UHGV virus genome: UHGV-0218987
DNA length: 30,308 nucleotides
DNA from: a virus
Direction: 5' to 3' (one strand)
Numbering within the stretch: position 1 is the stretch's first letter; the number at the start of each line of letters is the position of its first letter. The notes beneath the pieces were generated by a model, which did not search any database, was not told where the DNA came from, and saw only the letters and a program-made list of their open reading frames with translations. The position numbers and the translations under genes are program-made. Shown here piece after piece: positions 3,049 through 28,497 of this stretch.

Positions 3049-3110
3049 AATGACCACCGTTTACTGTGCATAAAGAACCTCCTTAGTTGGTTCTCATATC
3101 ATACACAATA

Positions 3111-3137
3111 AACCATATGTGTTTTAATTTGGTAACA
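3111..3137 (-). promoter_or_regulatory. Copy (i) of conserved regulatory cassette (GTTACCAAATTAAAACACATATGG) upstream of the lysis cassette
   Basis: The minus-strand read TTGTTACCAAATTAAAACACATATGGTT is homologous to the cassettes at 5987-6010 and 24999-25022; it contains a TGT-N12-ACA arrangement and lies about 60 nt upstream of the holin start, just after the tailspike terminator. Confidence 0.45.
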
Positions 3138-3180
3138 AATGAAAAAGCCCTTTAGTGAAAAACATTCATTAAAGGGCTAG
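3135..3180 (-). terminator. Rho-independent terminator after the tailspike gene
   Basis: Stem AGCCCTTTA / TAAAGGGCT followed on the minus strand by a T-run (TTTTTCATTTG). Confidence 0.6.
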
Positions 3181-3188
3181 ATATTTAC

Positions 3189-5933
3189 TTAACCTTTAGA
3201 AAAAACAGACAGTAACGGAAGTGTAAAAGTCGACACACCAGTATTCATCATGCAGGTTTTACCACCTGAGTATCCAGATATGGTTTGCGAAACTGGACTT
3301 CCTGTTGTTGGGAAAATGGTGATTTCATCCCCCCCCTTCAATACTCTAACTTTGCCTGTAACATCAACCGATGAACTTGAAACAGACGTGAGAGATCCGT
3401 TGGTCATTGTATAAAAGTTTATAGTTCCTGTTGCTGTTCTGCTTACACCACATCCTGATTTTTGCTTCTGTTTATAGTTAAACAATACCAGCAGGCCAAC
3501 AGGCATTGACTCAAGCTCAACTGCTGTAGACTGGTAGGTCTTACTGCCGTTTCTCATGTCAGGAGCCTCATCATCTGGATCAGAAAAATTATACCCAAGA
3601 GTTAAATCATTAACCGTGGCATTATTCCCTGTTATTCCTTTGACTTGATTAACACTTAACGGTATGTAATTAAACCCTGCAAAAAGCGGTGTTAACTTTT
3701 CTCTAAATAAAAGGCCTGGTGGGTATACTAACGAAGGTGTACCATCATATGTCACTGAGATAATATTAAGTCCCTTTTTAAGGGTTCCAATGCACGTTGT
3801 TTGTTTGCCTGTAAATGATGTTAGCCCATTGCTGGCAACTTTACCTGATAGATAAGAAGAGTTCCTGATGTCATTGAGAATGACATTGAACTGGTTAACA
3901 CGATCTGATGAAGTATAAGTTGGGTTATATGGCTCAAATAATGTTACAGAGATATCGCTTGTATCACTCCATACAAAATACCGACAAATAACATTTTCAT
4001 TTGAAGGCGTAATCCTTCCCCATCCACCAAGTGCATCAAGATAATCACCTCCACTTAATATCGAAATTGATGGGTAGTATCTGGTATTTGAAGGGTATCC
4101 AATACCAATAAATGAAAGTTGAGTAGTAGGGATTAGGTTCTTATTTTTTACAGCTGTATAAACGCGCTCTTTTAATACCTCTTTTGCAGCATAAGCACCG
4201 ATGTATGCATGTCCTATCGTTGATGGATGGCTCTGGTCAAAGACAGTACCGCCGTCACGTTTGGCAACATCAGATATAGAGTACGCGCCTATATCTGCAT
4301 AAGCGTCAGTCGTGGCAATGGACAAATCCAAAAACTCGACCTTTGGGAAAAGGCGTTCGATACGCTTCTTAATGGCTGACTCCAGGAAAGCCTTTGGCGC
4401 ATCGTTATTGTTTACAGTAACAAAGCATATCGGACAACCATATCCCCATGATTTTCTAATCAACTTTTCAAACTCATGAAAATACGCTTCAAATCCTATT
4501 GTTGGAAGTATTCCATTGTCATTAAAACCAAGGCTTATAAAAAGAACATCAGGAGCTTTTTTTCCATACGCAGCATTCTGGAAAAATCCATAGTCGAAGT
4601 TTTCATAACCCCAACCTGTCGCAAGTGACTTGCCAGACGATCCGCAGTTATATGCTTTAAAAATATTATCCGTGCTGTCGGATAGCATATTGAGGCAATC
4701 AGTAAAAATTCTGAACCATGAATGCTTACCGCCATTTAAATTATGATTGTAGTTGGTAGAGTTAAGATTTCCATCGCTACCAGTCGGGTTCGGGGTCCAT
4801 CCTGAACTATAGGCTCCATCCGTTATAGAATCACCAATGATACCTACATGGCAATCTTCTATAGTTGATTGGTAACTCTGCTTATTTGCAAATTTAGCAA
4901 TTGTTCCAAGAGCAGTAAAATCAGGGCCATTGTTAGATAGCCCAACATCAAAAACATGCTCATTACCCCATTTGTCTCTTGTGAGAATTTTACCTTCTCC
5001 AAGAAATTTAGTCACATCATCTGACGGTAAAAAATTACACCTGATGGTTACATCTTTTGGGATGTAAATCTGACCAGGGAAAGCATAAATTGCACTTCTG
5101 TTGTCAGTTGTCGTGTTAATAACGACATTTGGAACATAAAATATTGACGTTGCGTCAGTTCTATATTGTCCGTTAACAAGCTCAGATCTGAGAACCGCAT
5201 CCCCAACACCTCTCCAAGCGCCAGGACCAACACCACCAGTAGTGGTAGGAGTTGATCCTGGAGGAACTACTTTGGGCAGTGGCCCGTCCCATCTGTAGTA
5301 TTCGCCGTTGCTTTCCCAGAGAAGAACATCGTTAAGATAGATGATGGTATTACCCAACTCAAAAGATTTCTTCGTGTTATAGCCATACAATCCATTTTCT
5401 AAGGTTTCAATAATGGTGCTAAGTATGGTACTAAATTTTGCATAAAGATCATCAGTATATTTTTTTGTAGCAGCATCTTGGGGAAGAGATGGATCACGAA
5501 GATTTCTAATATAATTTGAAAGCGCGTCATAAAAAATTGCTACGTCATTTGGCTTTCTTAAAGCCAACTTATCATTTCTTAATGATTGTTGAATGAGCAT
5601 AGTAAGTTTATCAAACGCATCCTCATGTACCTCAGCGAAGAACTTACCCTGATTACGTAAATCCGTTTCCTGAGTAGCTGGTAGTTCTCGTGATATAGAT
5701 ATCTGATGACCGTTAGCCAACGCCTTCGAGAGAATTACATTACCGCCGTTATATCCTCCAGCCCCGGTAACTGTGTAATCAGTATCAAGAGCCAGCACAG
5801 CGATATTTTCGTCAAGGTCAACCACCTGTACTACCAGATCAGATTTATTGAAAACCCTAAAGGTGTACGGAAATGATGTCGTAACGCCGTTACCTGTGTA
5901 TTCGTTGTGGTCAACTTCGGTTGAGACCGTCAT
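3189..5933 (-). CDS. Tailspike / tail fibre with SGNH (GDSL) esterase domain
   Basis: 914-aa ORF with GGAGA RBS. N-terminal YTGNGVTTSFPYTF virion-attachment-like motif; central blocks GIIGDSITDG (GDSxxDG), ISLGFNDNG (GxND) and DQSHPS that together match SGNH hydrolase blocks I/III/V. Gene is visibly more AT-rich than its neighbours. Confidence 0.75.
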   Translation of the reverse strand: MTVSTEVDHNEYTGNGVTTSFPYTFRVFNKSDLVVQVVDLDENIAVLALDTDYTVTGAGGYNGGNVILSKALANGHQISISRELPATQETDLRNQGKFFAEVHEDAFDKLTMLIQQSLRNDKLALRKPNDVAIFYDALSNYIRNLRDPSLPQDAATKKYTDDLYAKFSTILSTIIETLENGLYGYNTKKSFELGNTIIYLNDVLLWESNGEYYRWDGPLPKVVPPGSTPTTTGGVGPGAWRGVGDAVLRSELVNGQYRTDATSIFYVPNVVINTTTDNRSAIYAFPGQIYIPKDVTIRCNFLPSDDVTKFLGEGKILTRDKWGNEHVFDVGLSNNGPDFTALGTIAKFANKQSYQSTIEDCHVGIIGDSITDGAYSSGWTPNPTGSDGNLNSTNYNHNLNGGKHSWFRIFTDCLNMLSDSTDNIFKAYNCGSSGKSLATGWGYENFDYGFFQNAAYGKKAPDVLFISLGFNDNGILPTIGFEAYFHEFEKLIRKSWGYGCPICFVTVNNNDAPKAFLESAIKKRIERLFPKVEFLDLSIATTDAYADIGAYSISDVAKRDGGTVFDQSHPSTIGHAYIGAYAAKEVLKERVYTAVKNKNLIPTTQLSFIGIGYPSNTRYYPSISILSGGDYLDALGGWGRITPSNENVICRYFVWSDTSDISVTLFEPYNPTYTSSDRVNQFNVILNDIRNSSYLSGKVASNGLTSFTGKQTTCIGTLKKGLNIISVTYDGTPSLVYPPGLLFREKLTPLFAGFNYIPLSVNQVKGITGNNATVNDLTLGYNFSDPDDEAPDMRNGSKTYQSTAVELESMPVGLLVLFNYKQKQKSGCGVSRTATGTINFYTMTNGSLTSVSSSSVDVTGKVRVLKGGDEITIFPTTGSPVSQTISGYSGGKTCMMNTGVSTFTLPLLSVFSKG

Positions 5934-5986
5934 GTTAAATCTCCAGATAGTCGCAGCACCCGTTGCGCCGCATATCCGATCATTCT

Positions 5987-6010
5987 ATTACCTAAAAAAC
6001 CACATATGGA
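5987..6010 (+). promoter_or_regulatory. Copy (ii) of conserved regulatory cassette (ATTACCTAAAAAACCACATATGGA)
   Basis: Homologous to the cassettes at 3111-3137 (minus) and 24999-25022; located in the divergent intergenic region between the tailspike and the 6129 gene. Confidence 0.45.
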
Positions 6011-6036
6011 TAGATAACCCATAAATACGAACAGAT

Positions 6037-6053
6037 ATTACCTTTCAGGTAAT
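6037..6053. promoter_or_regulatory. Perfect inverted repeat ATTACCT-TTC-AGGTAAT (operator-like)
   Basis: 7-bp perfect arms with a 3-nt spacer; same motif family as 25061-25077, 7485-7499 and 6416-6434. Confidence 0.5.
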
Positions 6054-6089
6054 TCGCAAAACGTGCTGGATAGCAAACAAATTATTTGC

Positions 6090-6109
6090 TACTGTATAAA
6101 TATACAGTT
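6090..6109 (+). promoter_or_regulatory. LexA (SOS) box TACTGTATAAATATACAGTT overlapping the promoter of the 6129 gene
   Basis: CTGT-N8-ACAG with an AT-rich spacer, a near-ideal match to the TACTG(TA)5CAGTA consensus; flanked by a -35-like TTGCTA (6086-6091) and TATTAC (6109-6114); 20 nt upstream of the start codon. Confidence 0.75.
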
Positions 6110-6128
6110 ATTACATGGAGAAGATAAG

Positions 6129-6386
6129 ATGCAGCAGTATCACTATCCACTGGAAGACGGATTTACCGAAAGGATTCACACGCCGGGAGGCGTCAGGTCA
6201 CTGGTGGAGGGATCGCACTTGATGAAATTACTCCGGGATCTCGATAAGGATGGATTTAATGTCGATGGCCCACTTGCCGAACTGACTGCACTGATTAACT
6301 ACGTCACCAGCTCACAGATGTCTATGCGGGATCTGCAAACACATCTCGACTATTGTGCCGAACAATTACGAAAACAAACCAGATAA
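6129..6386 (+). CDS. Small SOS-regulated protein, paralog of the C-terminal domain of the Bro-N antirepressor-like protein (candidate antirepressor or modulator)
   Basis: ATG at 6129 with GGAGA RBS (the listed ORF start at 6063 lies upstream of the LexA box and is unlikely). The product aligns with the C-terminus of the 6702..7412 protein (…GV…L-E-S-LM-LL…DG…V-G…AELT…RD-QTH…Y). Confidence 0.6.
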   Translation: MQQYHYPLEDGFTERIHTPGGVRSLVEGSHLMKLLRDLDKDGFNVDGPLAELTALINYVTSSQMSMRDLQTHLDYCAEQLRKQTR

Positions 6387-6400
6387 GATTTGAAATTACC

Positions 6401-6452
6401 AAGAGGAGTGCTTATATTTACCTTTGCGGTAAATTTACATCGCACTCCTCTT
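6401..6452 (+). other. Large nested hairpin (AAGAGGAGTGC … GCACTCCTCTT) enclosing inverted repeat ATTTACC-N5-GGTAAAT
   Basis: 11-bp perfect outer stem with a roughly 30-nt loop that itself contains a TTACC/GGTAA-family inverted repeat (6416-6434); followed by a second hairpin GGCACTGG-CAAAAT-CCAGTGCC at 6468-6489. Confidence 0.5.
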
Positions 6453-6522
6453 GTGCCATAGTAATCGGGCACTGGCAAAATCCAGTGCCGGGATTGGCGT
6501 CCCGAGTTACTAAGTGGCGCAT

Positions 6523-6545
6523 ACCACGCCAGACGTGGTTTTTTT
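6523..6545 (+). terminator. Rho-independent terminator (or attenuator) downstream of the 6129 gene
   Basis: Stem ACCACG / CGTGGT with loop CCAGA followed by seven T. Confidence 0.6.
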
Positions 6546-6701
6546 ATGCGTTAAGCACAGCCATATCCGAATTATGGTGGGCTGGGCAGGGGTCCGAAAG
6601 GACGCCGGTACCACTTAGGCCGGTACGCCAACCTTGTCCAGTTCACCACCAGTAATTGGCGTTGCGGTGGTGATTAAAATCACTAAGTGGAGATAACCAC
6701 C

Positions 6702-7412
6702 ATGGCTAATGCTCAAACTGCCATCTTCAAATTTGAATCTGTTAACCCTATCCGTTCCATCATTATCGATGGCCAACCATGGTTTGTAGCCCAAGACGTT
6801 TGTAGTGCGCTGCGTATCCAAAACGTCACCCAAGCACTTGAAAAACTGGATGATGATGAAAGGTCTATGTTCAACATAGGGCATGAACATCGTGCAATTT
6901 TTGACAGCCGAGTAAAAGAGATCAACATCATCTCCGAGTCAGGCCTCTACACACTGATCCTCCGCTGCCGCGATGCGGTGACACCAGGCACTATCCCCTA
7001 CCGCTTTCGTAAATGGGTTACAGGTGAGGTTCTTCCTCAGATCCGCCGCACCGGAAGTTACATTAAAAACTCGCTCCCGCAGGAAGAACGCATAAAGATG
7101 GTTGCCGACCAGGTAGCCAACGCCACAGCATCAGCAGTGATGCAGGCAATGAAGATAGAGAACAAAACCTACAGTGCCCCACTGAAGCCCGGCTACCGCA
7201 GTCTGATTCATTCTCCGTCTGGTGTTCTCGGCCTGACGGAGAACTCACTGCTGATGAATTTGCTGAACCAGTTGCAGGAAGACGGGCACGATGTATCGGG
7301 CGCGGCGGCGGAGCTGACCACCATGTTTTGCTACATCGTTGGTGTGAGCAAATGCCTGCGTGATATCCAGACTCACGCGGAGTACATCAACGACAAGGCT
7401 GGGTTCTTCTGA
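6702..7412 (+). CDS. Bro-N / KilA-N-type antirepressor-like protein
   Basis: N-terminal Bro-N signature (FKFESVNPIRSIIIDGQPWFVAQDVCSALRIQN … YRFRKWVTGEVLPQIRRTGSY). Start at ATG 6702 with GGAGA RBS (the listed ORF starts at 6687). C-terminal about 70 aa paralogous to the 6129..6386 product. Confidence 0.75.
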   Translation: MANAQTAIFKFESVNPIRSIIIDGQPWFVAQDVCSALRIQNVTQALEKLDDDERSMFNIGHEHRAIFDSRVKEINIISESGLYTLILRCRDAVTPGTIPYRFRKWVTGEVLPQIRRTGSYIKNSLPQEERIKMVADQVANATASAVMQAMKIENKTYSAPLKPGYRSLIHSPSGVLGLTENSLLMNLLNQLQEDGHDVSGAAAELTTMFCYIVGVSKCLRDIQTHAEYINDKAGFF

Positions 7413-7456
7413 CGGGCGGCGGCACAGGGATGTGCCTTTAAATAATTCTGTACAGA

Positions 7457-7499
7457 TTGCAGACTGTGGGTGAATAGCGTACTATTACCTCAAGGGTAA
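7457..7499 (+). promoter_or_regulatory. Sigma70-like promoter (TTGCAG-N17-TACTAT) overlapped by inverted repeat TTACCT-CAA-GGGTAA
   Basis: -35 at 7457-7462 and -10 at 7480-7485 with a 17-nt spacer; the inverted repeat at 7485-7499 (5 of 6 arm positions complementary) overlaps the -10 and +1 region, suggesting repressor control. Confidence 0.5.
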
Positions 7500-7559
7500 A
7501 CGGATTGGTTTCATTTTTATTAATCCGTGTAATGAACTTATGAGATATGAGGTAATGTC

Positions 7560-7739
7560 ATGCGAAACGAAAAATTGCAGATGCGTAGAGCGCAAGCTGC
7601 CGCAAGACGTTCTTTCAATGGAAGCGTAGAGTACGTAAAAGTTACTATGACAAAAGATCACGCAAGTCGCGTATCCCGAGCTTTCTTTGATTCTCGTAAC
7701 AATAAGGAAAATTATGAGTTCGTCTGCGTCGCAGAATGA
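7560..7739 (+). CDS. Small basic ORF (59 aa) overlapping the start of the downstream gene; candidate antitoxin or regulator
   Basis: ATG at 7560 with GAGGT RBS 6 nt upstream; ends at TGA 7737-7739, overlapping the 7714 start by 26 nt in another frame. Below the 60-aa cutoff of the supplied ORF track. No homology claimed. Confidence 0.35.
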   Translation: MRNEKLQMRRAQAAARRSFNGSVEYVKVTMTKDHASRVSRAFFDSRNNKENYEFVCVAE

Positions 7740-8259
7740 TAAAAATCAAATTGTCAGATATAAGGGTCGAGTATTGCATACGCAAAATTTCTCGGCCCTT
7801 TGTGCATCTGATCTTGAGCTGAAGAAAGTATCTGATGCCTTTACCCAGTATTGGAAAACGGGATACCATCCATCTCTTGGTAAAGATGCTGCATTTGCTC
7901 GTCCGACAGAAATGCTTAAACTAAATGTCAGGCATACTCATGTCGATAACCAAGACTATATTCCAGAAGATAGTGATAAAAAACACACTGGTAAAAAATC
8001 ATCTTGGGATGCATGGAAAAATATAGCGTCTGTGCAAGTAAAATGCATACCAACAAGTGATTGCTTTTTAGTTTATTCGGTAAATCACAATCGTGATGCG
8101 CTGGTTATGTTTTTTGTTGACGCAGATGCCCACAACATAACTGAGCAAGAAGAGTTTAAAGAGGAAGCAATCACTATCAGTTATCAATTCTTTGAGAAAA
8201 CAAAAACAGAACCAATGCCTTTAGAAGAAGATCTTTTTTCTGATAAATGGAAGGAATAA
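7714..8259 (+). CDS. AT-rich cargo protein, candidate YafO-like toxin (ribosome-dependent mRNA interferase family)
   Basis: ATG at 7714 with AAGGAA RBS (the listed ORF starts at a TTG at 7687). Motif pattern GKDAAFA … KLNVRHTHV … CFLVYSV … ALVMFFVDADAH resembles, from memory, conserved YafO blocks (GRDA…, RVAHIHL, LVY, AWLLIAIL-PEPH). Followed by a strong terminator. Confidence 0.5.
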   Translation: MSSSASQNDKNQIVRYKGRVLHTQNFSALCASDLELKKVSDAFTQYWKTGYHPSLGKDAAFARPTEMLKLNVRHTHVDNQDYIPEDSDKKHTGKKSSWDAWKNIASVQVKCIPTSDCFLVYSVNHNRDALVMFFVDADAHNITEQEEFKEEAITISYQFFEKTKTEPMPLEEDLFSDKWKE

Positions 8260-8281
8260 GCCCGCGTTGCGGGCTTTTTTG
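8259..8281 (+). terminator. Rho-independent terminator after the 7714..8259 gene
   Basis: GC-rich stem GCCCGC / GCGGGC followed by six T. Confidence 0.7.
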
Positions 8282-8317
8282 TGTCTGCGGATTCCCGCCC
8301 GGGCGGCGGTGGCATTC

Positions 8318-8345
8318 GTTAAAAACAAGGCCGCGAAAGCGGCCT
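8318..8345 (-). terminator. Rho-independent terminator after the 8359..8919 gene (convergent with the 8259-8281 terminator)
   Basis: Stem GGCCGC-GAAA-GCGGCC followed on the minus strand by CTTGTTTTTAACG. Confidence 0.6.
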
Positions 8346-8357
8346 GTGACATGTCAC
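8346..8357. repeat. 12-bp perfect palindrome GTGACATGTCAC (copy 1 of 3)
   Basis: Exact palindrome immediately 3' of the 8359..8919 stop codon; identical copies at 26035-26046 and 28486-28497. Confidence 0.8.
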
Positions 8358-8358
8358 G

Positions 8359-8919
8359 CTACATTGATATATGATTCATAAAGTAGCTTAAAGATTTACT
8401 TCCCAGAAAAGAAATTTCTTTTCCTGGATATGTCGCAATAATTGAGCATGACTTATCCCCGTTAGAGGTAACAAATCCTGAATAACCTACTTGTTCTTTA
8501 CCATTTTGTTGCTTGGCTAAAAAGTAGAGGTAGCTTATCTTTTTGCCCTCTGGGTAAAACTCTGCCAAACCAGTATCGGTGATTGAATATTTTATTCTCC
8601 CGCCTTGAGTAACGTTTTCCATCTCAAGTTTAGCTATGTCTTTTCTGTTGTATTCAGCATTGATTTTCCTTTCGAAATCAATGTTGTTTTCAAATGAGTA
8701 GGAAGCAACAGTCTGAATAGATGGGAACACGTTTATCTGGATGCCTCCACAGTCGGCACAGGTATAAAGGTATGAATCAGATGGAATCCCCATAAAAGAA
8801 AACTGAGTTACCTTAAATTTATCGTTATCTCCAAAGTATTGAAGTTCGCATTTAACATTTTGCCCTGCAAAAGAAAATGCAGACATCAATATTGAAACAA
8901 AAAATATAATTGCCTTCAT
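8359..8919 (-). CDS. Secreted (signal-peptide) protein of unknown function; AT-rich cargo gene appended to the late operon
   Basis: Signal-peptide-like N-terminus MKAIIFFVSILMSAFSFA; start overlaps the stop of the 850-aa gene (TAATG); visibly AT-rich; followed by a terminator. Confidence 0.7.
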   Translation of the reverse strand: MKAIIFFVSILMSAFSFAGQNVKCELQYFGDNDKFKVTQFSFMGIPSDSYLYTCADCGGIQINVFPSIQTVASYSFENNIDFERKINAEYNRKDIAKLEMENVTQGGRIKYSITDTGLAEFYPEGKKISYLYFLAKQQNGKEQVGYSGFVTSNGDKSCSIIATYPGKEISFLGSKSLSYFMNHISM

Positions 8920-8921
8920 TA

Positions 8922-11474
8922 TTATTTACCTAGCATGAACTGCGATGGTGGGATCAGAAAGTCGTTACCCTGCTCACGCTCAACACGGCGCTGATAACGC
9001 TCAAGAGAGCCTGGGTCAAGGGCATCTTGTATCCGGTTCAATATTAAACCATTCATCGCCGTACGAAGCCAGAACACGTTGAGGAATGGCGTATTGTCAA
9101 GTGCCGTGCGATACCAGTCACCCAAATCTGCATCCCCTCTCGTGGTCTGCTGGAGCAGCGTGATAATGCTGTCAGCGTTCGATGCTGCTGGCCCCATTAG
9201 CGACGTAACCGGCCCGGCCCCCATGCGGTTGACCTCGCCAAACATGAAGTCACCCAAGATGCCAAGACCGCCCCCCTGAGATGCGGCTGCGAGAAACGTC
9301 TTGGCATCTGCCGGGCGTGGTGTTTGCCCTTTCAGCATGAGTTTTGACTGCATGGAGATATAACCAAACATAGTCGCCCAGACAAAGAGGTTTGCAGCAC
9401 CAAGGAAAGCCCCCTTCCCGTTACGTAGCAGCGCATTCGTCAGCGATCCGGTTTTCGACTCACCAAGCCCAGCAGGAATATAACCACGCCCGAATACTTC
9501 GCGTCCTAGTACGTTCTGCATGAAGCTTGCAGTGAACGATTTGTACTGACCAGCGAATCGTATTGCTTCCCCAGCCACCGTTCCTGGCACCGTGCCCATC
9601 TTCATAAACGCCTGCGTGCGATCGCCAGGCTCTGACATGGCGATATTCAGGCGGTCAAGGATGTAGCCGCGCAACTGCCCTTCCAATTGATCGCGTGCGT
9701 CAGCGATAGCGCGCTGCGTTGGTTTGATCCCCTTACTCTCTACATAACCGGCAATCACTTCGTCAGGCACGCCGCGGATGCCGCTGGTCGTCATGAACTT
9801 ACGACCTTCGCTATCGGCCATGTCCATGTTGCGAAAAATTTCCCACTCACGTTCGCCAATACCGTGCAGATCCAGCACGCGTCGCAGGTCTTCCGGTAGC
9901 CGCGCATGAGACTGGTCAGCATTCTTTGCAAGCCAGTTGGTTATCATCATGGCGTTGCTGTTGCGACCGCTCTCGGTCCAGAAGTTCATGAGGTTGTACT
10001 TAAAGAAAAGCTGCTGCGCGCGACCAAGCTTTCCATTCAGCGTGTCATCACCAGATATGCGCCGGATGATTTCCTGCGTCATGGAGTCGGAATAAACTCC
10101 GATAGAGGAAAGGATCTCTTTCTGCTCCGCGCTGTTGTAACGCGTGAAGCGGCCTCTCATAGCACCAAGCAACGCCTGCATAAAATTCTGCCCTTGGTAG
10201 CGCATCTCGGTAGCGGCGATAGGCACGTCGTTAAACGATGAGATTACCGCACCACCAAGTTGGCTCATACGCAACCAGCCGCGTACAGCCGCCGACGCAT
10301 TGGCCCAGCCTACGCTGCCAGGAATATTTAGCGAGCCGTCAACCTGCGGCATTACGGTACGGTTAATGCGACGCACCTTCGTCATGTAGTCAGCCAACGC
10401 TGCCGGTCTTCCGGATTTGCTGATATCTTCAGCAATGGCGTCCGTCAGGTACTTAAACATGTTCTGTGGGTTAGTGCCCAGTACGCGCATCATGCCCGTT
10501 GTGCGGGCAGCGCTGTTTAAGCCACCAAACAGCGCTTCTCGCAGGCTGCCGGTGCCGAATTGCTGGTTGTACTCGTGCCACGAGATACCATCTTTGAAGT
10601 GCAAAATTCGCTCTTGGCTGGCGCGTTTAGCTGCGTTCGCCGATCCCTTAAAGCCATTCATCCAATCGGGCTTTTCAGATGTAAGATGCACGCCGGAAGC
10701 CAGCCCGTTATAAATGTTACGCATGAACTGCTCGCGGTCAGCCACGCCGTCAAAAGTGCGCTCATCAAGGCGCGGGAGAATAGCATTTCGCCATGCTTCA
10801 TAACCTGCGGCGCGGATCTTCATGATGTCGTGTGACTGGCGAACTATATAGCCCGGCTCTTTGCGTATCCATGCCCCGGCGCGGTTCTCATCAATGCGCG
10901 CAGTTTCCTGCCATTTCATGATGATTTGTGCAGCGCTTACGGATTGCTTTGTCATACCGTCAGTTGACTGCCCGCGCCCTATGCGCCACATTGCATCGGC
11001 AATTTCCCGGTCATTGCTGCCGCTGGCGATGAATTGCACCAGTCCGGCACGGTCAAAATCGTAGTTGATACCGGAATGATACTTGCCGCGCAGTTGCGCC
11101 ACCTCCGAAGATACCGACCGGCGGGCGCCGGTACGCGCATCGTTGCGGCCAACCAGCATTGCTTCAAGCCCGATATCCGGGCGGTCTTTCCAGATAGTAC
11201 GAAGCTCTCTAAGTCGTTGTGCGGCAATACGGGCGTTGATTGCCTTATTGCGAGCCTCAATCTGTTTTGCCAGCATATCGGCATTGCTCAGTTCTTCCGC
11301 TGCGCGCATCGCGGCCTCTTCCAGAGACAGCGCCTCATTGGTCGCCAGAATTCGCCTAGTGGTGTCGTTCATGTCACGCACCAGCGACTCCATCTCATCG
11401 GAAGAAAGCTCGCGACCAGCGGCAGCATTTACACTGCGCTCGCACTGCGTCAAAAATTCGTTTGCTGCCATCAC
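8922..11474 (-). CDS. Large internal virion / DNA-ejection protein (850 aa)
   Basis: Long ORF in a run of three large, translationally coupled genes downstream of the tail tubular genes; assignment by position and size (podovirus internal-core analogue), not by a recognised motif. Confidence 0.55.
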   Translation of the reverse strand: MMAANEFLTQCERSVNAAAGRELSSDEMESLVRDMNDTTRRILATNEALSLEEAAMRAAEELSNADMLAKQIEARNKAINARIAAQRLRELRTIWKDRPDIGLEAMLVGRNDARTGARRSVSSEVAQLRGKYHSGINYDFDRAGLVQFIASGSNDREIADAMWRIGRGQSTDGMTKQSVSAAQIIMKWQETARIDENRAGAWIRKEPGYIVRQSHDIMKIRAAGYEAWRNAILPRLDERTFDGVADREQFMRNIYNGLASGVHLTSEKPDWMNGFKGSANAAKRASQERILHFKDGISWHEYNQQFGTGSLREALFGGLNSAARTTGMMRVLGTNPQNMFKYLTDAIAEDISKSGRPAALADYMTKVRRINRTVMPQVDGSLNIPGSVGWANASAAVRGWLRMSQLGGAVISSFNDVPIAATEMRYQGQNFMQALLGAMRGRFTRYNSAEQKEILSSIGVYSDSMTQEIIRRISGDDTLNGKLGRAQQLFFKYNLMNFWTESGRNSNAMMITNWLAKNADQSHARLPEDLRRVLDLHGIGEREWEIFRNMDMADSEGRKFMTTSGIRGVPDEVIAGYVESKGIKPTQRAIADARDQLEGQLRGYILDRLNIAMSEPGDRTQAFMKMGTVPGTVAGEAIRFAGQYKSFTASFMQNVLGREVFGRGYIPAGLGESKTGSLTNALLRNGKGAFLGAANLFVWATMFGYISMQSKLMLKGQTPRPADAKTFLAAASQGGGLGILGDFMFGEVNRMGAGPVTSLMGPAASNADSIITLLQQTTRGDADLGDWYRTALDNTPFLNVFWLRTAMNGLILNRIQDALDPGSLERYQRRVEREQGNDFLIPPSQFMLGK

Positions 11475-13168: not shown

Positions 13169-13169
13169 G

Positions 13170-16336: not shown

Positions 16337-16800
16337 TATTTTCTCTCCATGTGAAATCTGTGGAAATTAAGACCAAGTGCACCATAAGGCGCGGCTTCTT
16401 CAAGCCTGAATCCAAGCCAGTGCAGCCATGCTTTGGCAACATGGTTTCGCTCATCGACATAGTTTTCCAGGCGCGGATAAACTGCCAGCATCTGCTGCAA
16501 TACAGGGCGGCAGTGGCGCAGAAATGTCTTCTGATATTTTTCAATACGGCTGGTCCCGACCAGCCAGGGCGTACCATTGCCACCGATCATTGACGCCGGA
16601 GATACACCAAACATGGTTACCAGTTCTCCGTTTGCGAACCCTGACCAGGCCATAGTCGCAGTGCGAAGACCAACACGCAGCGCATCTTCGGTAGTCATCA
16701 GCGATACCGCATACAGTTCGTCAATATCAGCCTGACGAACATCCGGCAAAATCATCTGAAGATGCTCTTCGGTGGCGGGAATAATTCGAACATCGATCAT
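16336..16800 (-). CDS. Virion-associated hypothetical protein (154 aa; T7 gp13-like by position)
   Basis: Start overlaps the stop of the tail tubular B-like gene; no motif recognised. Confidence 0.45.
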   Translation of the reverse strand: MIDVRIIPATEEHLQMILPDVRQADIDELYAVSLMTTEDALRVGLRTATMAWSGFANGELVTMFGVSPASMIGGNGTPWLVGTSRIEKYQKTFLRHCRPVLQQMLAVYPRLENYVDERNHVAKAWLHWLGFRLEEAAPYGALGLNFHRFHMERK

Positions 16801-19265: not shown

Positions 19266-19870
19266 CAGGACAACCTCGCAATGGTAAACTCGTCAACCGG
19301 TGGCTGTGGTTCCTGTGATTCATTCTGGCTATGCGAGCCAGCACTAAGAATCACGCGATTGTACATATTGAGGGCAAACGTACCGAGGTCTGCATTCCCA
19401 GTCAGCGCCATGTTAATAGCTGCCGCAAGACGCCAGGCTAACGCCTCCATAAAAATGGCATCAAACATGTTCACATCTGTAACGCGAGAGACATACTTGA
19501 GCCATGCCTGAGGCTGGTCTGTGTAGATCAACTTTCCTGTTCCGTTGGTGTCTGCACCAACTTCGTACTGAACGCGCATTGGTGCTGCTGGATTGCGTAC
19601 ACCAGGAAGCATAATTTCAGTAATGCGCAGACAATCGGACGGGTACTGGTACGCATATTCCCAGTCAGGCGGTGGATTGCTCGTATCTGCAAGCGCCACG
19701 CGTTTGGTAGCAAAGTTCCAGTCAAAATCAGAAAGCACAGCATCACGGCAGGCCTCAAAGTGCAGCGAACATTCCCCCGCTTCCTTGCTGGCTTCCGTCA
19801 GGCTGTTAATGCTGCGGCTATTGCCAATATTGGACAGCGCGCGATTGCAGATCTCTACTACAGAGGCCAT
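19265..19870 (-). CDS. Tail tubular protein A-like (T7 gp11-like adaptor or gatekeeper)
   Basis: 201 aa; N-terminal pattern NRALSNIGNSRSINSLTEA … FDWNF resembles T7 gp11 (ILASIGEPPVSTLEGD … GWTFN) as recalled from memory. Confidence 0.55.
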   Translation of the reverse strand: MASVVEICNRALSNIGNSRSINSLTEASKEAGECSLHFEACRDAVLSDFDWNFATKRVALADTSNPPPDWEYAYQYPSDCLRITEIMLPGVRNPAAPMRVQYEVGADTNGTGKLIYTDQPQAWLKYVSRVTDVNMFDAIFMEALAWRLAAAINMALTGNADLGTFALNMYNRVILSAGSHSQNESQEPQPPVDEFTIARLS

Positions 19871-20193
19871 TACTCCCCCCCATTGCCGTACAGAGTTTCA
19901 GCCGCTGATTTTCCTACATCACCGGAAACAGGAGCGATAGCCATATCAGTGATCTGCAGATCGGCGCTGCGATTAACACCATCGTCAGTTTCTCTGGCAG
20001 ACAGGCCTCGAATAACAGCCTTTGCAGTTATCATCACTTCTGTTCCGACGCCCTGAGGTTGCGCCTTCAGCTTATTCAATGTGTCGTTATTCAGCGTGAT
20101 GCACAGCCCCCACGGGTATTCATCGCGAGTTCTGGTTTCTCCGCTCTCATCCTGGTAGCTGTCAGTGCCTGTTTTGAGGTTTACGAGTTCCAT
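19870..20193 (-). CDS. Hypothetical structural-module protein
   Basis: ORF with AGGAG RBS 5 nt before the ATG at 20193; stop overlaps the start of the gp11-like gene. Confidence 0.5.
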   Translation of the reverse strand: MELVNLKTGTDSYQDESGETRTRDEYPWGLCITLNNDTLNKLKAQPQGVGTEVMITAKAVIRGLSARETDDGVNRSADLQITDMAIAPVSGDVGKSAAETLYGNGGE

Positions 20194-20204
20194 ATACACT
20201 CCTG

Positions 20205-20232
20205 CAATAAAGGGGCCGAAGCCCCTTGTCTG
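20205..20232 (-). terminator. Hairpin / weak terminator downstream of 20244..20588
   Basis: Stem AGGGGC-CGAA-GCCCCT; weak T-tract (TATTGC) on the minus strand, so it may be an attenuator or RNA stability element. Confidence 0.4.
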
Positions 20233-20243
20233 ATTCGCGAGGC

Positions 20244-20588
20244 TTACACGCCCAGTTCTTTACGCTTATCTGCGATCTTCTCGCGGAGCGTTTCGGCTTT
20301 GGCGTTATGGTGTGGCTTCTCGTTAAAGAGCAATTCGTACTCTTCACGGAGCTTATCCAGTTCACCATCATCTGACACATCGTTGATGATTTTGGTGCTG
20401 GTTGCTGCCATTGACACCTTTCCTGCAACTTTTGCTTTTGCCTGTCTGGCTGCATCGTTAACAGGTTCCAGTGCGCTACCAGGCTCACCTTCGTATTCGA
20501 TTTCTGCCCCCTCCGGCCACAGAGTGTTATGGATATGAGAGAGGCGCAGAACGCGGTATCTTGGTTTCTCACCTGACATCGATATCAC
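20244..20588 (-). CDS. Hypothetical head-module protein
   Basis: ORF adjacent to the preceding head gene in the head module; charged C-terminus; no motif recognised. Confidence 0.5.
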   Translation of the reverse strand: MISMSGEKPRYRVLRLSHIHNTLWPEGAEIEYEGEPGSALEPVNDAARQAKAKVAGKVSMAATSTKIINDVSDDGELDKLREEYELLFNEKPHHNAKAETLREKIADKRKELGV

Positions 20589-20589
20589 C

Positions 20590-21027
20590 TTAACCAGTTA
20601 CTTTTGAGCGGATCGGATACGGCGTATTGGCATCAACATCAAGACTGATACCAGCAGTGAATTCGCCAGCCGTTAGTGGGCCAGTTGCGACGGAGTAGTT
20701 AACACGCAGATATCGCTGAACACCGGCAGGCACCTTTGCAGAAACAACTCGTTTACCTGCTGTCAGGGCGGTCTTTGCCAGTGCGCCACTATCATAAATA
20801 GTGGTCCATGAGCTGTTATTCTCACTCGTCTGCAACTGGATGTTTACAGTTGCATCACCGCTTGCCGCGGCGGCTGTGTTAACCAGCGCCCAAAACTCAA
20901 GCGGGTAACCCACGCCGATATCACGATGTTTTCCGTCAATTGGACCGAGATCGATTACGTCAGTAGAAGCCGCGGTATTCGTAACCGCCTGAGCTTCGGA
21001 GAACATCAACAGTTTGTCGGTGATCAT
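20590..21027 (-). CDS. Putative capsid decoration / head accessory protein
   Basis: 145-aa ORF directly downstream of the major capsid gene with GGAGA RBS; Thr/Ala/Val-rich, consistent with a beta-rich fold; functional call is positional only. Confidence 0.4.
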   Translation of the reverse strand: MITDKLLMFSEAQAVTNTAASTDVIDLGPIDGKHRDIGVGYPLEFWALVNTAAAASGDATVNIQLQTSENNSSWTTIYDSGALAKTALTAGKRVVSAKVPAGVQRYLRVNYSVATGPLTAGEFTAGISLDVDANTPYPIRSKVTG

Positions 21028-21078
21028 CTTCTTTCTCCATTAGTGGGTCTGTTACGACCCACAGGTTAATAACAGGCG

Positions 21079-22071
21079 TTACACCACGCGGGCTTCTGTT
21101 TCCAGAAGCGCATCAGTCTCACGGATTGGTACACCACGGAATGAAGTCCACCACTCGCCTTCTGTCTCTTTTACGCTGATCGCCAGAGATGTTTTCTCCA
21201 GAGATTGCAGATCAAGAGCCTGGCCTACAGTGCGGTTCATGTAGAACACCGGGCGGCCCATGCCACGGTTTGGAATGCGATGCAGTGCTTTAACCATCAA
21301 CTTCGCAATATTTGCTGCAGAGGAAGGTTCTGAAAGATTGCTGACATCAATGTTTGCAATGCGAACAACATAACGCCAGTCACGCAGAGCAAGCCCGTTG
21401 TCCCATTTGTAATGGGTACGGTAGCCTTCGTACTTGCCGCCATTCGCATCTTCCAGTGTCACCTGGCCTTTATCTTCCATCTGGATGCCAGCCTTCTTCC
21501 CTTTCGGGAAGATGCCATGCACGGTGTTTTCGCCCCACACTACTAACCAGATTGAGGTGTTATCTGTACCCGTACCACCAGCATCAATGATGTTCTGAGC
21601 ATTACCCGCAGACAGGCTGGAATAGCGGGAGGACAGTCCCATAAACTGCTGAGGGTTAACGCTGGAATCACCATAAAACAGTGTCTGCGCCATCTGCTGA
21701 TTCATCGCTTCAATAAATGCGCGGTCTTCAGACAGGCGGAATTCGGCGGTATTACCGTTCAGATCAGCCAGTGACTTATCGACTTCAGCATAGGTTTCCA
21801 GCATGCCAACGGAATCGGTTACCTGCACTGTGGTTGATTTGCTTGGCTGTACGCCATAGTTCAGCAAACGCCAGGTAGCTGAAGGTAAACCAGAACGAAT
21901 GGTGGTTCGGTGTCCGGTAGGAAGGTTCCCTTCGACAAAAGGCATATCCTGAAGGATCGGGTTAGTTTGACCGAGAAGCTCGATAATCTTATCGACTTTC
22001 CCGTTTGGATCGACGCGCTTACCCCAGTCAGCCAGCGTTAGCGCAGTTAAGCCTTTAACAGCCATTGTCAT
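21079..22071 (-). CDS. Major capsid protein (HK97-fold type)
   Basis: 330-aa ORF following a scaffold-like gene and the portal; size and context typical of a podovirus coat protein; RBS present. Confidence 0.75.
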   Translation of the reverse strand: MTMAVKGLTALTLADWGKRVDPNGKVDKIIELLGQTNPILQDMPFVEGNLPTGHRTTIRSGLPSATWRLLNYGVQPSKSTTVQVTDSVGMLETYAEVDKSLADLNGNTAEFRLSEDRAFIEAMNQQMAQTLFYGDSSVNPQQFMGLSSRYSSLSAGNAQNIIDAGGTGTDNTSIWLVVWGENTVHGIFPKGKKAGIQMEDKGQVTLEDANGGKYEGYRTHYKWDNGLALRDWRYVVRIANIDVSNLSEPSSAANIAKLMVKALHRIPNRGMGRPVFYMNRTVGQALDLQSLEKTSLAISVKETEGEWWTSFRGVPIRETDALLETEARVV

Positions 22072-22079
22072 TTCCTCTC

Positions 22080-22781
22080 TTATTTGCCATAGAGCACTTC
22101 GGCCGCACTACGCTGGCCTTCATTACCACCGGTGACCATGCCATCTTCAGACATCGCCTTTCCGATTTTCACGAACGTTTTGACCAGATCAGGGTGATTA
22201 CCCAGCCCGGTGGTGTTCAGATATTCTTTGAGTTCAGGTGTCCCGAACTGGTCAAGCGCACGCTGTGCGGCGCTAAGGTTAGAAATCAACTTGTCGCCAC
22301 CGATTTCTTTATCAGCTTTTACATCCGCAGCCCACTGCTCGGTTGTTTTCTGCCAGGCTTCTGCCTGGCGCTGCTGAACACCTGCCAGAATCTTCGGATA
22401 AGCATCAACCAGCTTTTGCGCTTGCTCGTTGGTCAGGTTTAGTTCTCGCGCCACCGGCTCGAATTCCTTCAACGCTTCTGTATCCAGCTCTACGCCTTCG
22501 GCAGCCTGAAACTCGTACTTCTCCGGCGCACCATCCGGTTTATCGCCGTCCTTTTTTTCACCCTGCTTATCGCTTTCAGGCTTTTTGTCATCAGCAGGTT
22601 TATCGCCATCAGCAACAGGTTGCGGCTTATCACCTTCTTGTTGTGATGGATCACCAACTGGAGCATGGTTATCACCTGCAGGCGCTGATGGTTCTGACGC
22701 AGCCGGAGCTGCTCCACCATCGACTGGTTGCTCATTGCAAAGACGGCGATACAGCAAACGCTCAAATAAATTCATGATCAC
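22080..22781 (-). CDS. Scaffolding protein
   Basis: Low-complexity acidic/lysine/proline-rich N-terminal half and helical C-terminal half, located between portal and capsid genes. Confidence 0.55.
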   Translation of the reverse strand: MIMNLFERLLYRRLCNEQPVDGGAAPAASEPSAPAGDNHAPVGDPSQQEGDKPQPVADGDKPADDKKPESDKQGEKKDGDKPDGAPEKYEFQAAEGVELDTEALKEFEPVARELNLTNEQAQKLVDAYPKILAGVQQRQAEAWQKTTEQWAADVKADKEIGGDKLISNLSAAQRALDQFGTPELKEYLNTTGLGNHPDLVKTFVKIGKAMSEDGMVTGGNEGQRSAAEVLYGK

Positions 22782-23074
22782 TCCTGTTCACTGGCCTCTT
22801 TGGCCATCTTCAAATACTGTTCAGGGCAATGCGCCATAACGCGCTGAAACAGCTCCAGCGCCAGATTGCGTTGCCCCTCATTAAATGCCATTGCCATAGC
22901 ATCCATCGGAGAGATAGCGGAAAACACCCGGCCTTTCTCCAGCACAGACCAGACAACGCGACGCCCCTGTTCACTGCTCATGACAAAGCGAATGTCATCA
23001 ATTTCACGCTGTGCCATGTCACGTTGCTTACGGGCGTTTTCTTCTTTCAGTTGATCGTCTTCGTAATCTGTCAT
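22778..23074 (-). CDS. Hypothetical small head-module protein
   Basis: 98-aa ORF overlapping the portal stop and the scaffold start (4-nt overlaps). Confidence 0.45.
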   Translation of the reverse strand: MTDYEDDQLKEENARKQRDMAQREIDDIRFVMSSEQGRRVVWSVLEKGRVFSAISPMDAMAMAFNEGQRNLALELFQRVMAHCPEQYLKMAKEASEQE

Positions 23075-24750
23075 TGTGATTGCCCACCCTGACCACTAAC
23101 TGCATTCGCCATAGCTGACAAAACACTCGGATCCGAAGTTTTAGCTTCGCTTAGCGTCTTGGCACCCTGTGCCGCCGCCATCCCCATCGCCATCATTTGT
23201 TGCTGCTGTTGTTGCTGTGCCCGTTGCTGGCGAGCCTGCTCAACCTGTTCCTGCGGAACAATGACGGTTGGAGACACTCCAGACATATCAGCGAATGCAT
23301 CGATCGCCTGATCAACGTTGAGTTTGTCGAGAGCTTCTGGTTTCGCTTGCGCAAGTTGACCAATGAAGTTAACCGTGGACGCCAGACTGGACAGGCCGAT
23401 AGACTTCTGCGCCTGAGCCATGACGGAAATGTATTCGACCTTCAGGGGCATGCCTTCCATCGCGTCAGGCGGTGGCGGCAACATGTTTTTACGCACCATC
23501 ATCGAGAAAGCGCGGTCAATGAGAGGATTAAGACATTCGTCGTTCAGACGCTCCAGAACCGGCCCCAACATCAGAAGTTTTTCTTCTTTCATTTCGATCA
23601 CCGCTTCAACAGGCATCGAGCGGGTATTGATGTTCTGCAACATCATGAACAGATCGACAAAGTAGGCGCTGTTAATGATTTGACGAGTGTCCTGAATGTC
23701 TGCCACCAAATCTGCTGTACTGGGGTTAACCAGATAAGCAGGCCTGAAGCCATCCTGACCAGTAATCTGATCGATATACGTGATGTCGCCAGGAAGAAGG
23801 GAGGCGCGCTGATTCTTGAGGGAAGTCGGAGCAACCATCGGAGGATTGGTGGCTTTATCAATCAACTGCGACTTGCGCTTCTGGAGAAGCTGCAATGCCT
23901 TAACAGGTCCAAGCGCCAGCATACCCGGGCATGATGATCCATAAACATCTTCGCCGTTAACTTCCCAGCGCGGAGCCATAATTGGAAACTCATCGAATCC
24001 GGACTCACGCAACAACTTGTCGTTATCGCCACCAACCTCGTAATAAACCGATTTGAATGGCTTGTTCTTGCTATCCAGCTTCGATGTATCGCGGTCAATG
24101 TTCGGATAAACCGAATGCATCACTTCAATCCACTTCTCGTAGGTGCCGCTTTCCCACATGCTTTTTACGGATTCGCTGACGTTATTTAGTCCGAATTCCT
24201 GAACAAGCTGACGAACAGTCATAGAGAACTTGCGAAAACAGGTGTCCACACTGCCACGAGGTGAGTTAGCCAGGTAGTAACTTCCTATCGGGAATGGCAT
24301 TGTACGAATGATGTCCTCGTCATCCTCCAGCACCGCCATTGCACCGGTGCTGTATGTGCCGAGGCTTCCGTATAACTGCGGCAGCGACTGATAGAGATTC
24401 GACTTATTGAACATATCGTTCATGCGGTTCTGCACTGCCTCAAGCCACAACTTAACAGGGCCATAATCCATCATTTCAGGATCTGGCGTAGCCAGGCGAA
24501 ACCACGGACGCACGGGGCTTGTGATGCCTGACATCATGCCGCTGGCGAGAGTGCGCGCCGCCATAGTCCCAGTCGAATCAATAATGCGTGTATTGCGTCG
24601 ATCGTTACGGTTGACCTCAGAAGTCAGAAAGCGGGAACCACGCGGGTTGATGTAATCACTCAACTCGCGCCAGTGCGGCTCGAACGACTGACGCTCGCTT
24701 TCAAGTTGTGCGAACTGTTTGTTCAATCGCTCTTTAGTTGTTTCCGCCAT
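23071..24750 (-). CDS. Portal (head-to-tail connector) protein
   Basis: 559-aa ORF upstream of the scaffold and capsid genes with GGAG RBS; size and position consistent with a podovirus portal; acidic Gln-rich C-terminus. Confidence 0.7.
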   Translation of the reverse strand: MAETTKERLNKQFAQLESERQSFEPHWRELSDYINPRGSRFLTSEVNRNDRRNTRIIDSTGTMAARTLASGMMSGITSPVRPWFRLATPDPEMMDYGPVKLWLEAVQNRMNDMFNKSNLYQSLPQLYGSLGTYSTGAMAVLEDDEDIIRTMPFPIGSYYLANSPRGSVDTCFRKFSMTVRQLVQEFGLNNVSESVKSMWESGTYEKWIEVMHSVYPNIDRDTSKLDSKNKPFKSVYYEVGGDNDKLLRESGFDEFPIMAPRWEVNGEDVYGSSCPGMLALGPVKALQLLQKRKSQLIDKATNPPMVAPTSLKNQRASLLPGDITYIDQITGQDGFRPAYLVNPSTADLVADIQDTRQIINSAYFVDLFMMLQNINTRSMPVEAVIEMKEEKLLMLGPVLERLNDECLNPLIDRAFSMMVRKNMLPPPPDAMEGMPLKVEYISVMAQAQKSIGLSSLASTVNFIGQLAQAKPEALDKLNVDQAIDAFADMSGVSPTVIVPQEQVEQARQQRAQQQQQQQMMAMGMAAAQGAKTLSEAKTSDPSVLSAMANAVSGQGGQSQ

Positions 24751-24764
24751 TTCAATGACTCCGG

Positions 24765-24971
24765 TTACTGGCCAAGCAGCGTTTTACCGCTGGTATTAGC
24801 GGTTGATGTGTCGCCCTGAGAACCGGTAAGCAGCGTAGAACTACGACCAGCAGCAGCGCGACGGCGACGAGTTTCTTCGTCGCGGGCATCAACAACGGCG
24901 GCATCCTGCTCCTGTGGTGCTGCCTGAACTTCTGGTGTTGCAGGCACTGACGGTGAGCTACCCATGCACAT
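24765..24971 (-). CDS. Small low-complexity hypothetical protein upstream of portal
   Basis: 68-aa ORF with GGAG RBS ending 14 nt before the portal RBS; the alternative overlapping frame (24752..24991) was judged less likely. Confidence 0.35.
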   Translation of the reverse strand: MCMGSSPSVPATPEVQAAPQEQDAAVVDARDEETRRRRAAAGRSSTLLTGSQGDTSTANTSGKTLLGQ

Positions 24972-24998
24972 ATCAATGACTCCGTACGCAATTAAATT

Positions 24999-25022
24999 AT
25001 TACCAATTTAACCACATATGAT
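24999..25022 (+). promoter_or_regulatory. Copy (iii) of conserved regulatory cassette (ATTACCAATTTAACCACATATGAT)
   Basis: Homologous to 5987-6010 and 3111-3137; followed by a TTGACA hexamer at 25040-25045 and the inverted repeat at 25061-25077. Confidence 0.45.
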
Positions 25023-25039
25023 TTATTTATCGTAGATAG

Positions 25040-25077
25040 TTGACATTTAACGCATGAATTATTACCTTTAAGGTAAG
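25040..25077 (+). promoter_or_regulatory. Promoter-like region (TTGACA) with inverted repeat ATTACCT-TTA-AGGTAA
   Basis: Consensus -35 hexamer; the operator-like inverted repeat sits where the -10 would be; lies upstream of the tRNA and Gp49-like module. Confidence 0.45.
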
Positions 25078-25475: not shown

Positions 25476-25518
25476 GAATCACGCCTAAGGACCGTGATGC
25501 CAGAAGTTCCAGGGGCTT

Positions 25519-25561: not shown

Positions 25562-25673
25562 CAGCAGGACGCCATTGCGATGACTTCATGCTGTAAACCC
25601 GTACAGCCACGGAAGGCATAACTCATTGCTTCCAGTTCGCCCGGTTCGCCGGGCATTTTTTTAAGGTGAGATT

Positions 25674-28192: not shown

Positions 28193-28263
28193 CACCGTGG
28201 TAATAGTTACCGTTGTGGTAATAGTACCATGCAAAATAAAGCCGCCATAGTTGGCGGCAGTAT

Positions 28264-28485: not shown

Positions 28486-28497
28486 GTGACATGTCAC
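28486..28497. repeat. 12-bp perfect palindrome GTGACATGTCAC (copy 3 of 3)
   Basis: Spans the stop codon of 28494..28832 and the region just upstream of the 28476 start; about 300 bp upstream of the small terminase gene. Confidence 0.8.

Follow-up and report, generated by a model that had tools for sequence, protein, structure and literature searches.

The closest described systems to the locus considered here are the repressor-antirepressor switches of the phages epsilon15 and SPC32H. The SPC32H repressor Rep is reported to be a tetramer on palindromic sites that is taken apart by the antirepressor Ant, and its DNA-binding domains to pair across dimers (PMC9638917). The stretch analysed, hereafter the window, comprises 30,308 nt of the viral genome UHGV-0218987. 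Its late region is 96-97% identical to Escherichia phages TL-2011b, phiV10 and relatives, and it is the late half of an epsilon15/phiV10-like prophage (Uetakevirus, epsilon15-like podoviruses). Two short sequences recur in it: an inverted repeat, and a 24-nt sequence, here called the late element, that lies before three late units. The favoured reading, held at a probability of roughly 0.7, is that they represent two separate regulatory layers, the repeats being dispersed Rep operators and the late elements acting as late promoters.

The late element reads CATATGTGGTT-N5-KG-TAnnAn over 24 nt or, more fully, CATATGTGGTT-N5-(G/T)G-TA(A/T)(T/G)A(A/G/T). Its three copies are all on the minus strand, which carries every late gene of the window. 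Copy C (CATATGTGGTTAAATTGGTAATAA, 24997..25020) lies 25 nt upstream of the ATG (24971) of the gp3 homologue, copy B (CATATGTGGTTTTTTAGGTAATAG, 5985..6008) lies 51 nt upstream of the tailspike ATG (5933) and copy A (CACATATGGTTTATTGTGTATGAT, 3098..3121) immediately follows the tailspike terminator and precedes the leader open reading frame (ORF) of the lysis genes by ~27 nt. The flanks of the three copies are unrelated to one another. An earlier note on this DNA had already recognised the three copies as a cassette, and the sequences it quoted are all present where it placed them. The copies are real, but as registered there they align only with a 1-nt gap and with copy A on the other strand from B and C. 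The mixed orientation that followed (minus strand for A and plus strand for B and C, each facing the lysis, SOS or tRNA/Gp49 unit) had to be abandoned, as all three copies are on the minus strand and point neither toward the SOS gene nor toward the tRNA/Gp49 unit. The artefact arose because the CATATG core is palindromic and a lone TTACC lies nearby. The lysis copy of the window reads CACATATGG and mimics the flipped form, its core being the near-palindromic CCATATRTGG. When epsilon15, phiV10 and Tyrion were searched with the form shared by B and C, the lysis copy was found on the same strand as the other two, the epsilon15 copy reading ACCACATATG.

A single ungapped 24-nt pattern, CAYATRTGGTTNNNNNKGTAWKAD, matches all three copies on the minus strand; it was derived from the window's own three sites, so that a test within the window is circular and the independent test is provided by other genomes. 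With a position weight matrix, each of six further complete relatives gave exactly three matches of 27-36 bits, every one syntenic and on the late strand; the next-best score on either strand of the complete genomes was at most 13 bits. The looser pattern CA.AT...GTT.{5}.G.A..A. gave three late-strand matches in nearly every genome examined, with three stray matches in total. The 24-mer of copy C is identical in epsilon15, phiV10, Tyrion, SPC32N and a Klebsiella prophage, where portal identity is only 60%, and the lysis copy is kept upstream of the lysis genes in eight further enterobacterial genera, prophages of Citrobacter, Klebsiella, Kluyvera, Scandinavium, Pseudocitrobacter, Erwinia and Buttiauxella among them, with an adjacent protein that is only 65-93% identical in those prophages. 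In a scan of viral contigs (at least 120 loci) the high-scoring copies occurred only with epsilon15-type leaders among the matches listed, the others listed falling below 27 bits and looking like chance. In the public records examined the element seems to carry no annotation.

The inverted repeat was found by a pattern search of the window to occur in the exact form TTACC-N5-GGTAA at 6038-6052, 6418-6432, 7485-7499, 25062-25076 and 28207-28221, five copies against 0.00 expected from 100 shuffles; with up to one mismatch there are eight copies against 0.51 expected. The full palindrome, ATTACC-N5-GGTAAT, spans 15-17 bp. Four of these sites had been listed in the earlier note and are exact, while that at 28207-28221 and a one-mismatch site at 28189-28203 were found in addition. 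A motif search in relatives, which the note had suggested, found both motifs recurring at syntenic positions. For the repeat, phiV10, epsilon15 and Tyrion each hold 14-15 copies at up to one mismatch (~0.6 expected), SPC32N and the Klebsiella prophage hold 10-11 exact copies, and in all five the copies flank rep on both sides. Recurring positions in relatives lie upstream of terS (as a tandem pair), of gp3 and of the lysis cassette, around ant, and past the replication genes. Among 56 distinct close relatives the half-sites of the operator upstream of gp3 are invariant and the central 5 nt are variable; the Sodalis phage phiSG1 was too degenerate to inform the comparison.

In the epsilon15 RefSeq record (NC_004775) these repeats are labelled protein_bind 'repressor, lysogeny', and their sequences match the window sites. 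The repeat of the window is accordingly the predicted operator of the epsilon15 gp38/SPC32H-type repressor Rep. The identity of the operator is known biology, already annotated for the type phage and here extended to this prophage. The rep gene and the immunity region lie beyond the right end of the window; in TL-2011b, the closest relative, rep is ~5 kb past the equivalent of the window end. The phiV10 Rep homologue matches PDB entry 5D50_A, 'Repressor', at E=4e-42. The N-terminal NLVNRW of Rep is invariant in five lineages that are otherwise 43-78% identical; it is read here as a probable recognition helix, and its invariance fits the half-sites that these lineages have in common. Between the E. 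coli/Enterobacter and the Salmonella/Klebsiella lineages Rep is only ~43% identical, with the motif and the operator half-sites kept, and given that common motif and those half-sites prophages of different genera may be partly cross-immune. The second partner of the SPC32H-type switch, an Ant homologue behind a LexA box, is present in the window: the product of the SOS gene (ant, 6129-6386, plus strand, an 85-aa SOS-controlled small antirepressor) matches PDB 5D50_E, 'Anti-repressor protein', at E=1.4e-46 with ~85% identity (a hand count from the alignment), and a LexA box, TACTGTATAAATATACAGTT, lies over the ant promoter at 6090..6109 on the plus strand.

The position of the repeats with respect to predicted promoters is consistent with repression. 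The earlier note had seen inverted repeats over -10/+1 positions in two cases, and such an overlap was found at 6418, 7485, 25062 and 28207. At three sites (6418, 7485 and 28221) the -10 and TTACC have one T in common, the last of the former and the first of the latter. Of the two operators at terS, the first (28207..28221, exact) begins, read on the minus strand, with the T that ends the extended -10 TGGTACTAT (28229..28221), which itself lies just after the intrinsic terminator (28258..28241, minus) that ends the early-right operon and has an annotated homologue in epsilon15 and phiV10. The second (28189..28203, one mismatch) overlaps the ribosome-binding site and the probable terS ATG (~28187). 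Paired sites 5' of terS are syntenic in phiV10, epsilon15 and Tyrion, and that at 12-27 of epsilon15 is annotated 'repressor'. On the plus strand, the exact operator of the tRNA-Arg/Gp49 unit (25062..25076; epsilon15 homologue 2931-2947, annotated 'repressor') contains the -10 (25063-25068) of a sigma-70-type promoter-like sequence, TTGACA-17-TACCTT (25040..25068), directed toward tRNA-Arg and the Gp49-family gene; this sequence scored below the threshold of the promoter scan and was read by eye. The TTGACA at 25040 is invariant in the 56 relatives and the spacer varies. The exact operator at 7485..7499, with a syntenic site in TL-2011b, begins at the last T of the -10 of TTGCAG-17-TACTAT (7457-7485, plus; -35 at 7457-7462, -10 at 7480-7485), which serves a unit of a 59-aa ORF and a YafO-like gene. 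The exact operator at 6418..6432 likewise begins at the last T of the -10, in this case of TTGAAA-17-TATATT (6390-6418, plus), found in the promoter scan and reading into isrK, C4 and the Bro-N antirepressor gene. These are classical positions for occlusion, so Rep should keep terS-terL and every cargo unit of the plus strand silent in a lysogen, provided that the predicted promoters are used.

The operator at 6418 also forms the apex of a 53-nt hairpin (6400-6452; 12-bp outer stem, -28.6 kcal/mol, z=-4.3) directly after the ant stop codon, which may be the 3' end of the ant transcript and also holds the spacer of the next promoter. The fifth exact site (6038..6052) is differently placed. The ant promoter is on one side of it and the tailspike late element on the other. 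It falls at ~-68 relative to the start site predicted for the tailspike, and its epsilon15 homologue (19895-19911) is annotated 'repressor'. It is ~380 bp from the 6418 site, a pairing found also in phiV10 and Tyrion. The lysis genes, which the earlier note had tied to the cargo modules by the repeat, are not tied in this way, as the lysis unit of the window has no operator at up to two mismatches.

The late element is read as a putative activator-dependent late promoter for the gp3/structural, tailspike and lysis units. Each copy lies 25-51 nt upstream of the Shine-Dalgarno sequence and ATG of its unit, and each of these units comes after a terminator or a divergent insert. An intrinsic terminator after the tailspike gene (3141..3178, minus; a hairpin with a T-run) precedes the lysis copy, so the lysis genes need a promoter of their own; and since no divergent gene lies on the other side of the lysis copy, either in the window or in TL-2011b, a purely anti-late role is excluded there. 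The TAnnAn hexamer stands at a fixed distance from the core in all copies. Transcripts would start at ~3091, 5978 and 24990 (minus), ~7 nt past the hexamer, giving leaders of ~20-45 nt with a Shine-Dalgarno sequence, and the core CCATATRTGG would fall at ~-31 to -22.

A number of points weigh against this reading and must be set beside it. The -10-like hexamers (TAATAA, TAATAG and TATGAT) are weak and there is no -35, so promoter function would depend on a further factor. Inspection by eye at spacings of 16-21 nt found no -35 for the late elements, and the promoter scan gave a weak sigma-70-like match only at the lysis copy (TTAAAA-18-TATGAT). The gp3 copy and its whole leader are so invariant that the element cannot be separated from its flank. 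The operators near the late elements lie at ~-68 to -79, which is not a classical position for repression, and Rep may or may not control the three late units directly. Operator binding and start sites are both predicted from sequence here. Comparison with the consensus sequences of IHF, CRP, DnaA, sigma-32, PhoP and OmpR suggested no convincing match to the element.

Three further features of the late leaders were observed. A lone TTGTTACC (3131-3137, minus) lies upstream of the lysis late element at ~-42 from the predicted start; it is common to a distant Klebsiella prophage that likewise has the tailspike directly upstream of the lysis gene, and it could be an operator remnant or a part of the promoter. 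A GC-rich hairpin (5940-5972, minus; -18.9 kcal/mol, z=-2.6) lies between copy B and the tailspike ribosome-binding site, and a hairpin of different sequence occupies the same place in the leaders of epsilon15, Tyrion, Klebsiella, Scandinavium and Buttiauxella, which suggests that the structure is conserved. A 12-codon upstream ORF, MHSKRWSLCQPG (3033-3071, minus), has a strong AGGAGG and overlaps the first lysis-gene start (ATG 3048), and even distant relatives keep its first 18 nt, ATGCACAGTAAACGGTGG, almost unchanged.

The alternative that survives best, improbable as it is, takes the late element for a non-canonical Rep/Cro-like site to which Rep would loop from an operator 50-60 bp upstream, with no separate activator. 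It draws on several resemblances. The element holds GGTTA...GGTAA as a direct repeat spaced by 10 bp. An operator half-site and its customary flank recur unchanged in the -10 regions of copies B and C (GGTAATAA and GGTAATAG), and GGTAATAATT is common to copy C and the flank of the operator at 25062-25076. In relatives a full operator stands 43-62 bp upstream of most late elements, two operators bear directly on terS, and the DNA-binding domains of the SPC32H Rep tetramer are reported to pair across dimers (PMC9638917). However, the lysis copy has neither GGTAA in its -10 (TGTATGAT) nor a nearby operator in the window, and CATATG, the most conserved part of the element, is not explained by Rep half-sites. 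The distances between operator and element, 50, 54 and 62 bp, are out of helical phase, and a promoter with no -35 would still need help to fire. Within the reading of the elements as late promoters, Rep might also damp those of gp3 and the tailspike by looping.

It is less probable again, and indeed very unlikely, that the copies are merely conserved leader sequence with no promoter role, the late genes being expressed by read-through and the element acting, if at all, at the level of RNA. The whole leader downstream of each copy is also conserved, and the epsilon15 annotators predicted an RNase III site over the lysis copy. Against this, the three copies keep a 24-nt core between flanks that are unrelated, strong terminators precede at least the lysis and terS units, and no stable RNA structure of the element itself was evident by inspection, the element not having been folded. 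Little better can be said for an anti-late role, in which the cassette would serve the divergent cargo promoters (ant, tRNA/Gp49 and, in relatives, O-antigen genes) as an upstream or activator site, and this ranks lower still. In most relatives each copy does lie in a divergent intergenic region, and at site C the element is 20 nt upstream of the plus-strand TTGACA; but B and C differ by 12 nt in how far they lie from the cargo promoters and operators, every copy keeps a fixed spacing to the late-strand TAnnAn, and the lysis copy (in the window and TL-2011b) faces only the tailspike terminator or the co-directional oac gene.

The least credible proposal is that of the earlier note, that one factor, perhaps the 'zinc-ribbon' protein (28494..28835, minus; the homologue of epsilon15 gp49 and phiV10 p55), binds cassette and repeats alike with the cassette pointing to the lysis, SOS and tRNA/Gp49 units: copies B and C do contain TTACC, one operator half-site, and the gp49-like gene is the last early-right gene before the late region and belongs to PHROG 536, 'transcriptional regulator', but the three copies point the same way in every relative, the lysis copies of epsilon15, phiV10 and Tyrion do not include the TTACC seen at copy A, the repeats cluster around rep and not around the gp49-like gene, and that protein has no detected DNA-binding domain and has homologues in phages with neither motif. 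Strand and synteny go most of the way to refuting this proposal. What stands of that proposal is that the recurring cis-elements mark the starts of separate transcription units and that one factor very probably binds all the repeats; that factor is most probably Rep, whose sites are annotated in NC_004775, and the cassette is a different element.

If the late element is an activator-dependent promoter, its activator may be one of the conserved early proteins. The gp49-like protein was considered as a factor for either motif and is unsupported, because close homologues occur in the lambda-like phage Chlobot (90% identity) and the myovirus ZF40 (67%), where Q-type antiterminators are present and neither motif was found. 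Searches of this protein found no Pfam or NCBIfam domain, only a sub-threshold match to a LexA-regulated family, and no relative in the PDB. Its AlphaFold model is poor (predicted local distance difference test, pLDDT, 63.6; predicted template modelling score, pTM, 0.36), too poor for a fold search, and of its 718 homologues none among the 120 listed has a functional name. The early proteins common to five complete relatives are a PerC-like protein, an AlpA-family protein, Rep, a Cro-like protein, the gp49-like protein and three small proteins with no assigned function (PHROGs 856, 898 and 1081). A screen of these against PHROGs and Pfam gave no decisive candidate for an activator, and any of them could be the late-element factor. 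A tentative proposal, rather doubtful at present, is that epsilon15-like podoviruses have a late-promoter class of their own, defined by the 24-nt element, in which the core replaces the -35 and is read by a phage factor; candidate readers, all in every relative, would be the PerC-like and gp49-like proteins and those of PHROGs 856, 898 and 1081. Were it the PerC-like protein that reads the element, the PerC/Pch family, so far known for virulence regulation, would gain a native phage function.

Put together, the two layers would work as follows, the part shown directly being the statistics, synteny, strand specificity and conservation of the motifs, and the homology that links Ant and Rep to the solved SPC32H proteins. 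In the lysogen, Rep on operators at or after the -10 would block RNA polymerase at the terS-terL, tRNA-Arg/Gp49, isrK-C4-Bro-N and YafO-like units, with one more operator lying upstream of ant. On DNA damage LexA would leave the ant promoter and Ant would disassemble Rep, and the loss of Rep would release all the operator-bearing units jointly. The late element would serve as promoter of the gp3/structural, tailspike and lysis units, its core CCATATRTGG most likely recruiting, or being recognised via, a phage-encoded factor.

A second antirepressor is found next to ant. Between the promoter-like sequence at 6390-6418 and the Bro-N antirepressor gene (6687-7412, plus) lie an isrK RNA (6469-6545, plus; Rfam, 67.2 bits against a gathering score of 50) and a C4 antisense RNA (6570-6653, plus; Rfam, 66 bits against 45). 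By resemblance of sequence, isrK, C4 and Bro-N are a putative control module of the P1 immI or Gifsy IsrK kind. The prophage has two antirepressor systems, a LexA-controlled Ant and an RNA-controlled Bro-N.

The remaining layout of the window is that of a minus late strand broken up by plus-strand inserts, namely the tRNA-Arg/Gp49, SOS gene, Bro-N and YafO-like units. The late genes (minus) are terS (27593-28267, with the probable true start at ATG ~28187), terL (26121-27596), the gp3 homologue (24765-24971) heading a structural operon whose genes extend down to 8359, the tailspike (3189-5933) and the lysis cassette (1251-3057). One plus-strand insert carries tRNA-Arg(TCT) (25399-25475) and a gene of the Gp49/Sf6-gp66 family (25674-26030), and another carries the 59-aa ORF and the YafO-like toxin (7560-8259; Pfam YafO_toxin). 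A non-coding leader of ~320 nt (25077-25398, plus) separates the operator-bearing promoter-like sequence from tRNA-Arg; an Rfam search of this leader matched no family, and the epsilon15 annotators predicted an RNase III site in the equivalent stretch. On the late strand an 83-aa ORF (25405-25656, minus; PHROG 4647, p04 in the phiV10 annotation) overlaps tRNA-Arg(TCT) on the other strand by ~70 nt, and one of the two annotations is possibly spurious. Between the gp49-like gene on one side and the early-right terminator and terS on the other lies a 70-aa ORF (28264-28476, minus) of PHROG 1541, a family with no assigned function, which is absent from phiV10, where there is only ~40 bp.

Such a map would give a coherent account of regulation in a prophage family common in E. 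coli, Salmonella and Klebsiella. The late element offers a testable target for the late switch-on in epsilon15-like phages, which have no recognisable Q-type antiterminator, and the map should be of use in annotating such prophages and in engineering reporter phages of the phiV10/epsilon15 type.

Compared with known systems, the repressor layer is closest to that of epsilon15 and SPC32H, which have the same palindrome, ATTACC-N5-GGTAAT, and sites upstream of terS, upstream of gp3 and between ant and the tailspike. The window differs from epsilon15 in its extra operators at the isrK-C4-Bro-N and YafO-like cargo, absent from epsilon15, and in lacking the operator that epsilon15 has upstream of the lysis cassette. 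The layer is also like that of C1 of phage P1, in which one repressor acts on many dispersed operators (Oref, Omat, Ossb and others are listed in the P1 record) and an antirepressor operon is under a C4 RNA. P1 differs in having asymmetric 17-mers as operators and a C1 that is not known to be related to Rep, and unlike in P1, induction is proposed here to pass through a LexA-controlled small antirepressor. For the late element the nearest parallel is again in P1, whose late promoters depend on the phage protein Lpa and consist of a -10 and a 9-bp '-22 region' (PMC8198154). As in the window, there is a -10, no -35 and a short dyad-symmetric element in the interval from -35 to -10, repeated before late operons. 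An alignment of the P1 promoters gave the element as AAGTNACTT, 4 nt from the -10, whereas the CCATATRTGG of the window is 9 nt from the -10, so that sequence and spacing are unrelated, and family scans found no Lpa-like family among the window or conserved early proteins, Lpa itself not being compared directly. A Q-type model was rejected: the late elements lack a -35 and a consistent -10-like pause element further downstream, and family scans of the window and relatives detected no Q-like protein. The position of the core (~-31 to -22) is nevertheless compatible with the binding elements of lambda Q and Pseudomonas AlpA, that of AlpA being at -25 to -20, between the -35 and -10 of the late promoter (PMC9371919). 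The likeness of the late element to the P1 Lpa and Q systems is best regarded as one of functional analogy and not of membership.

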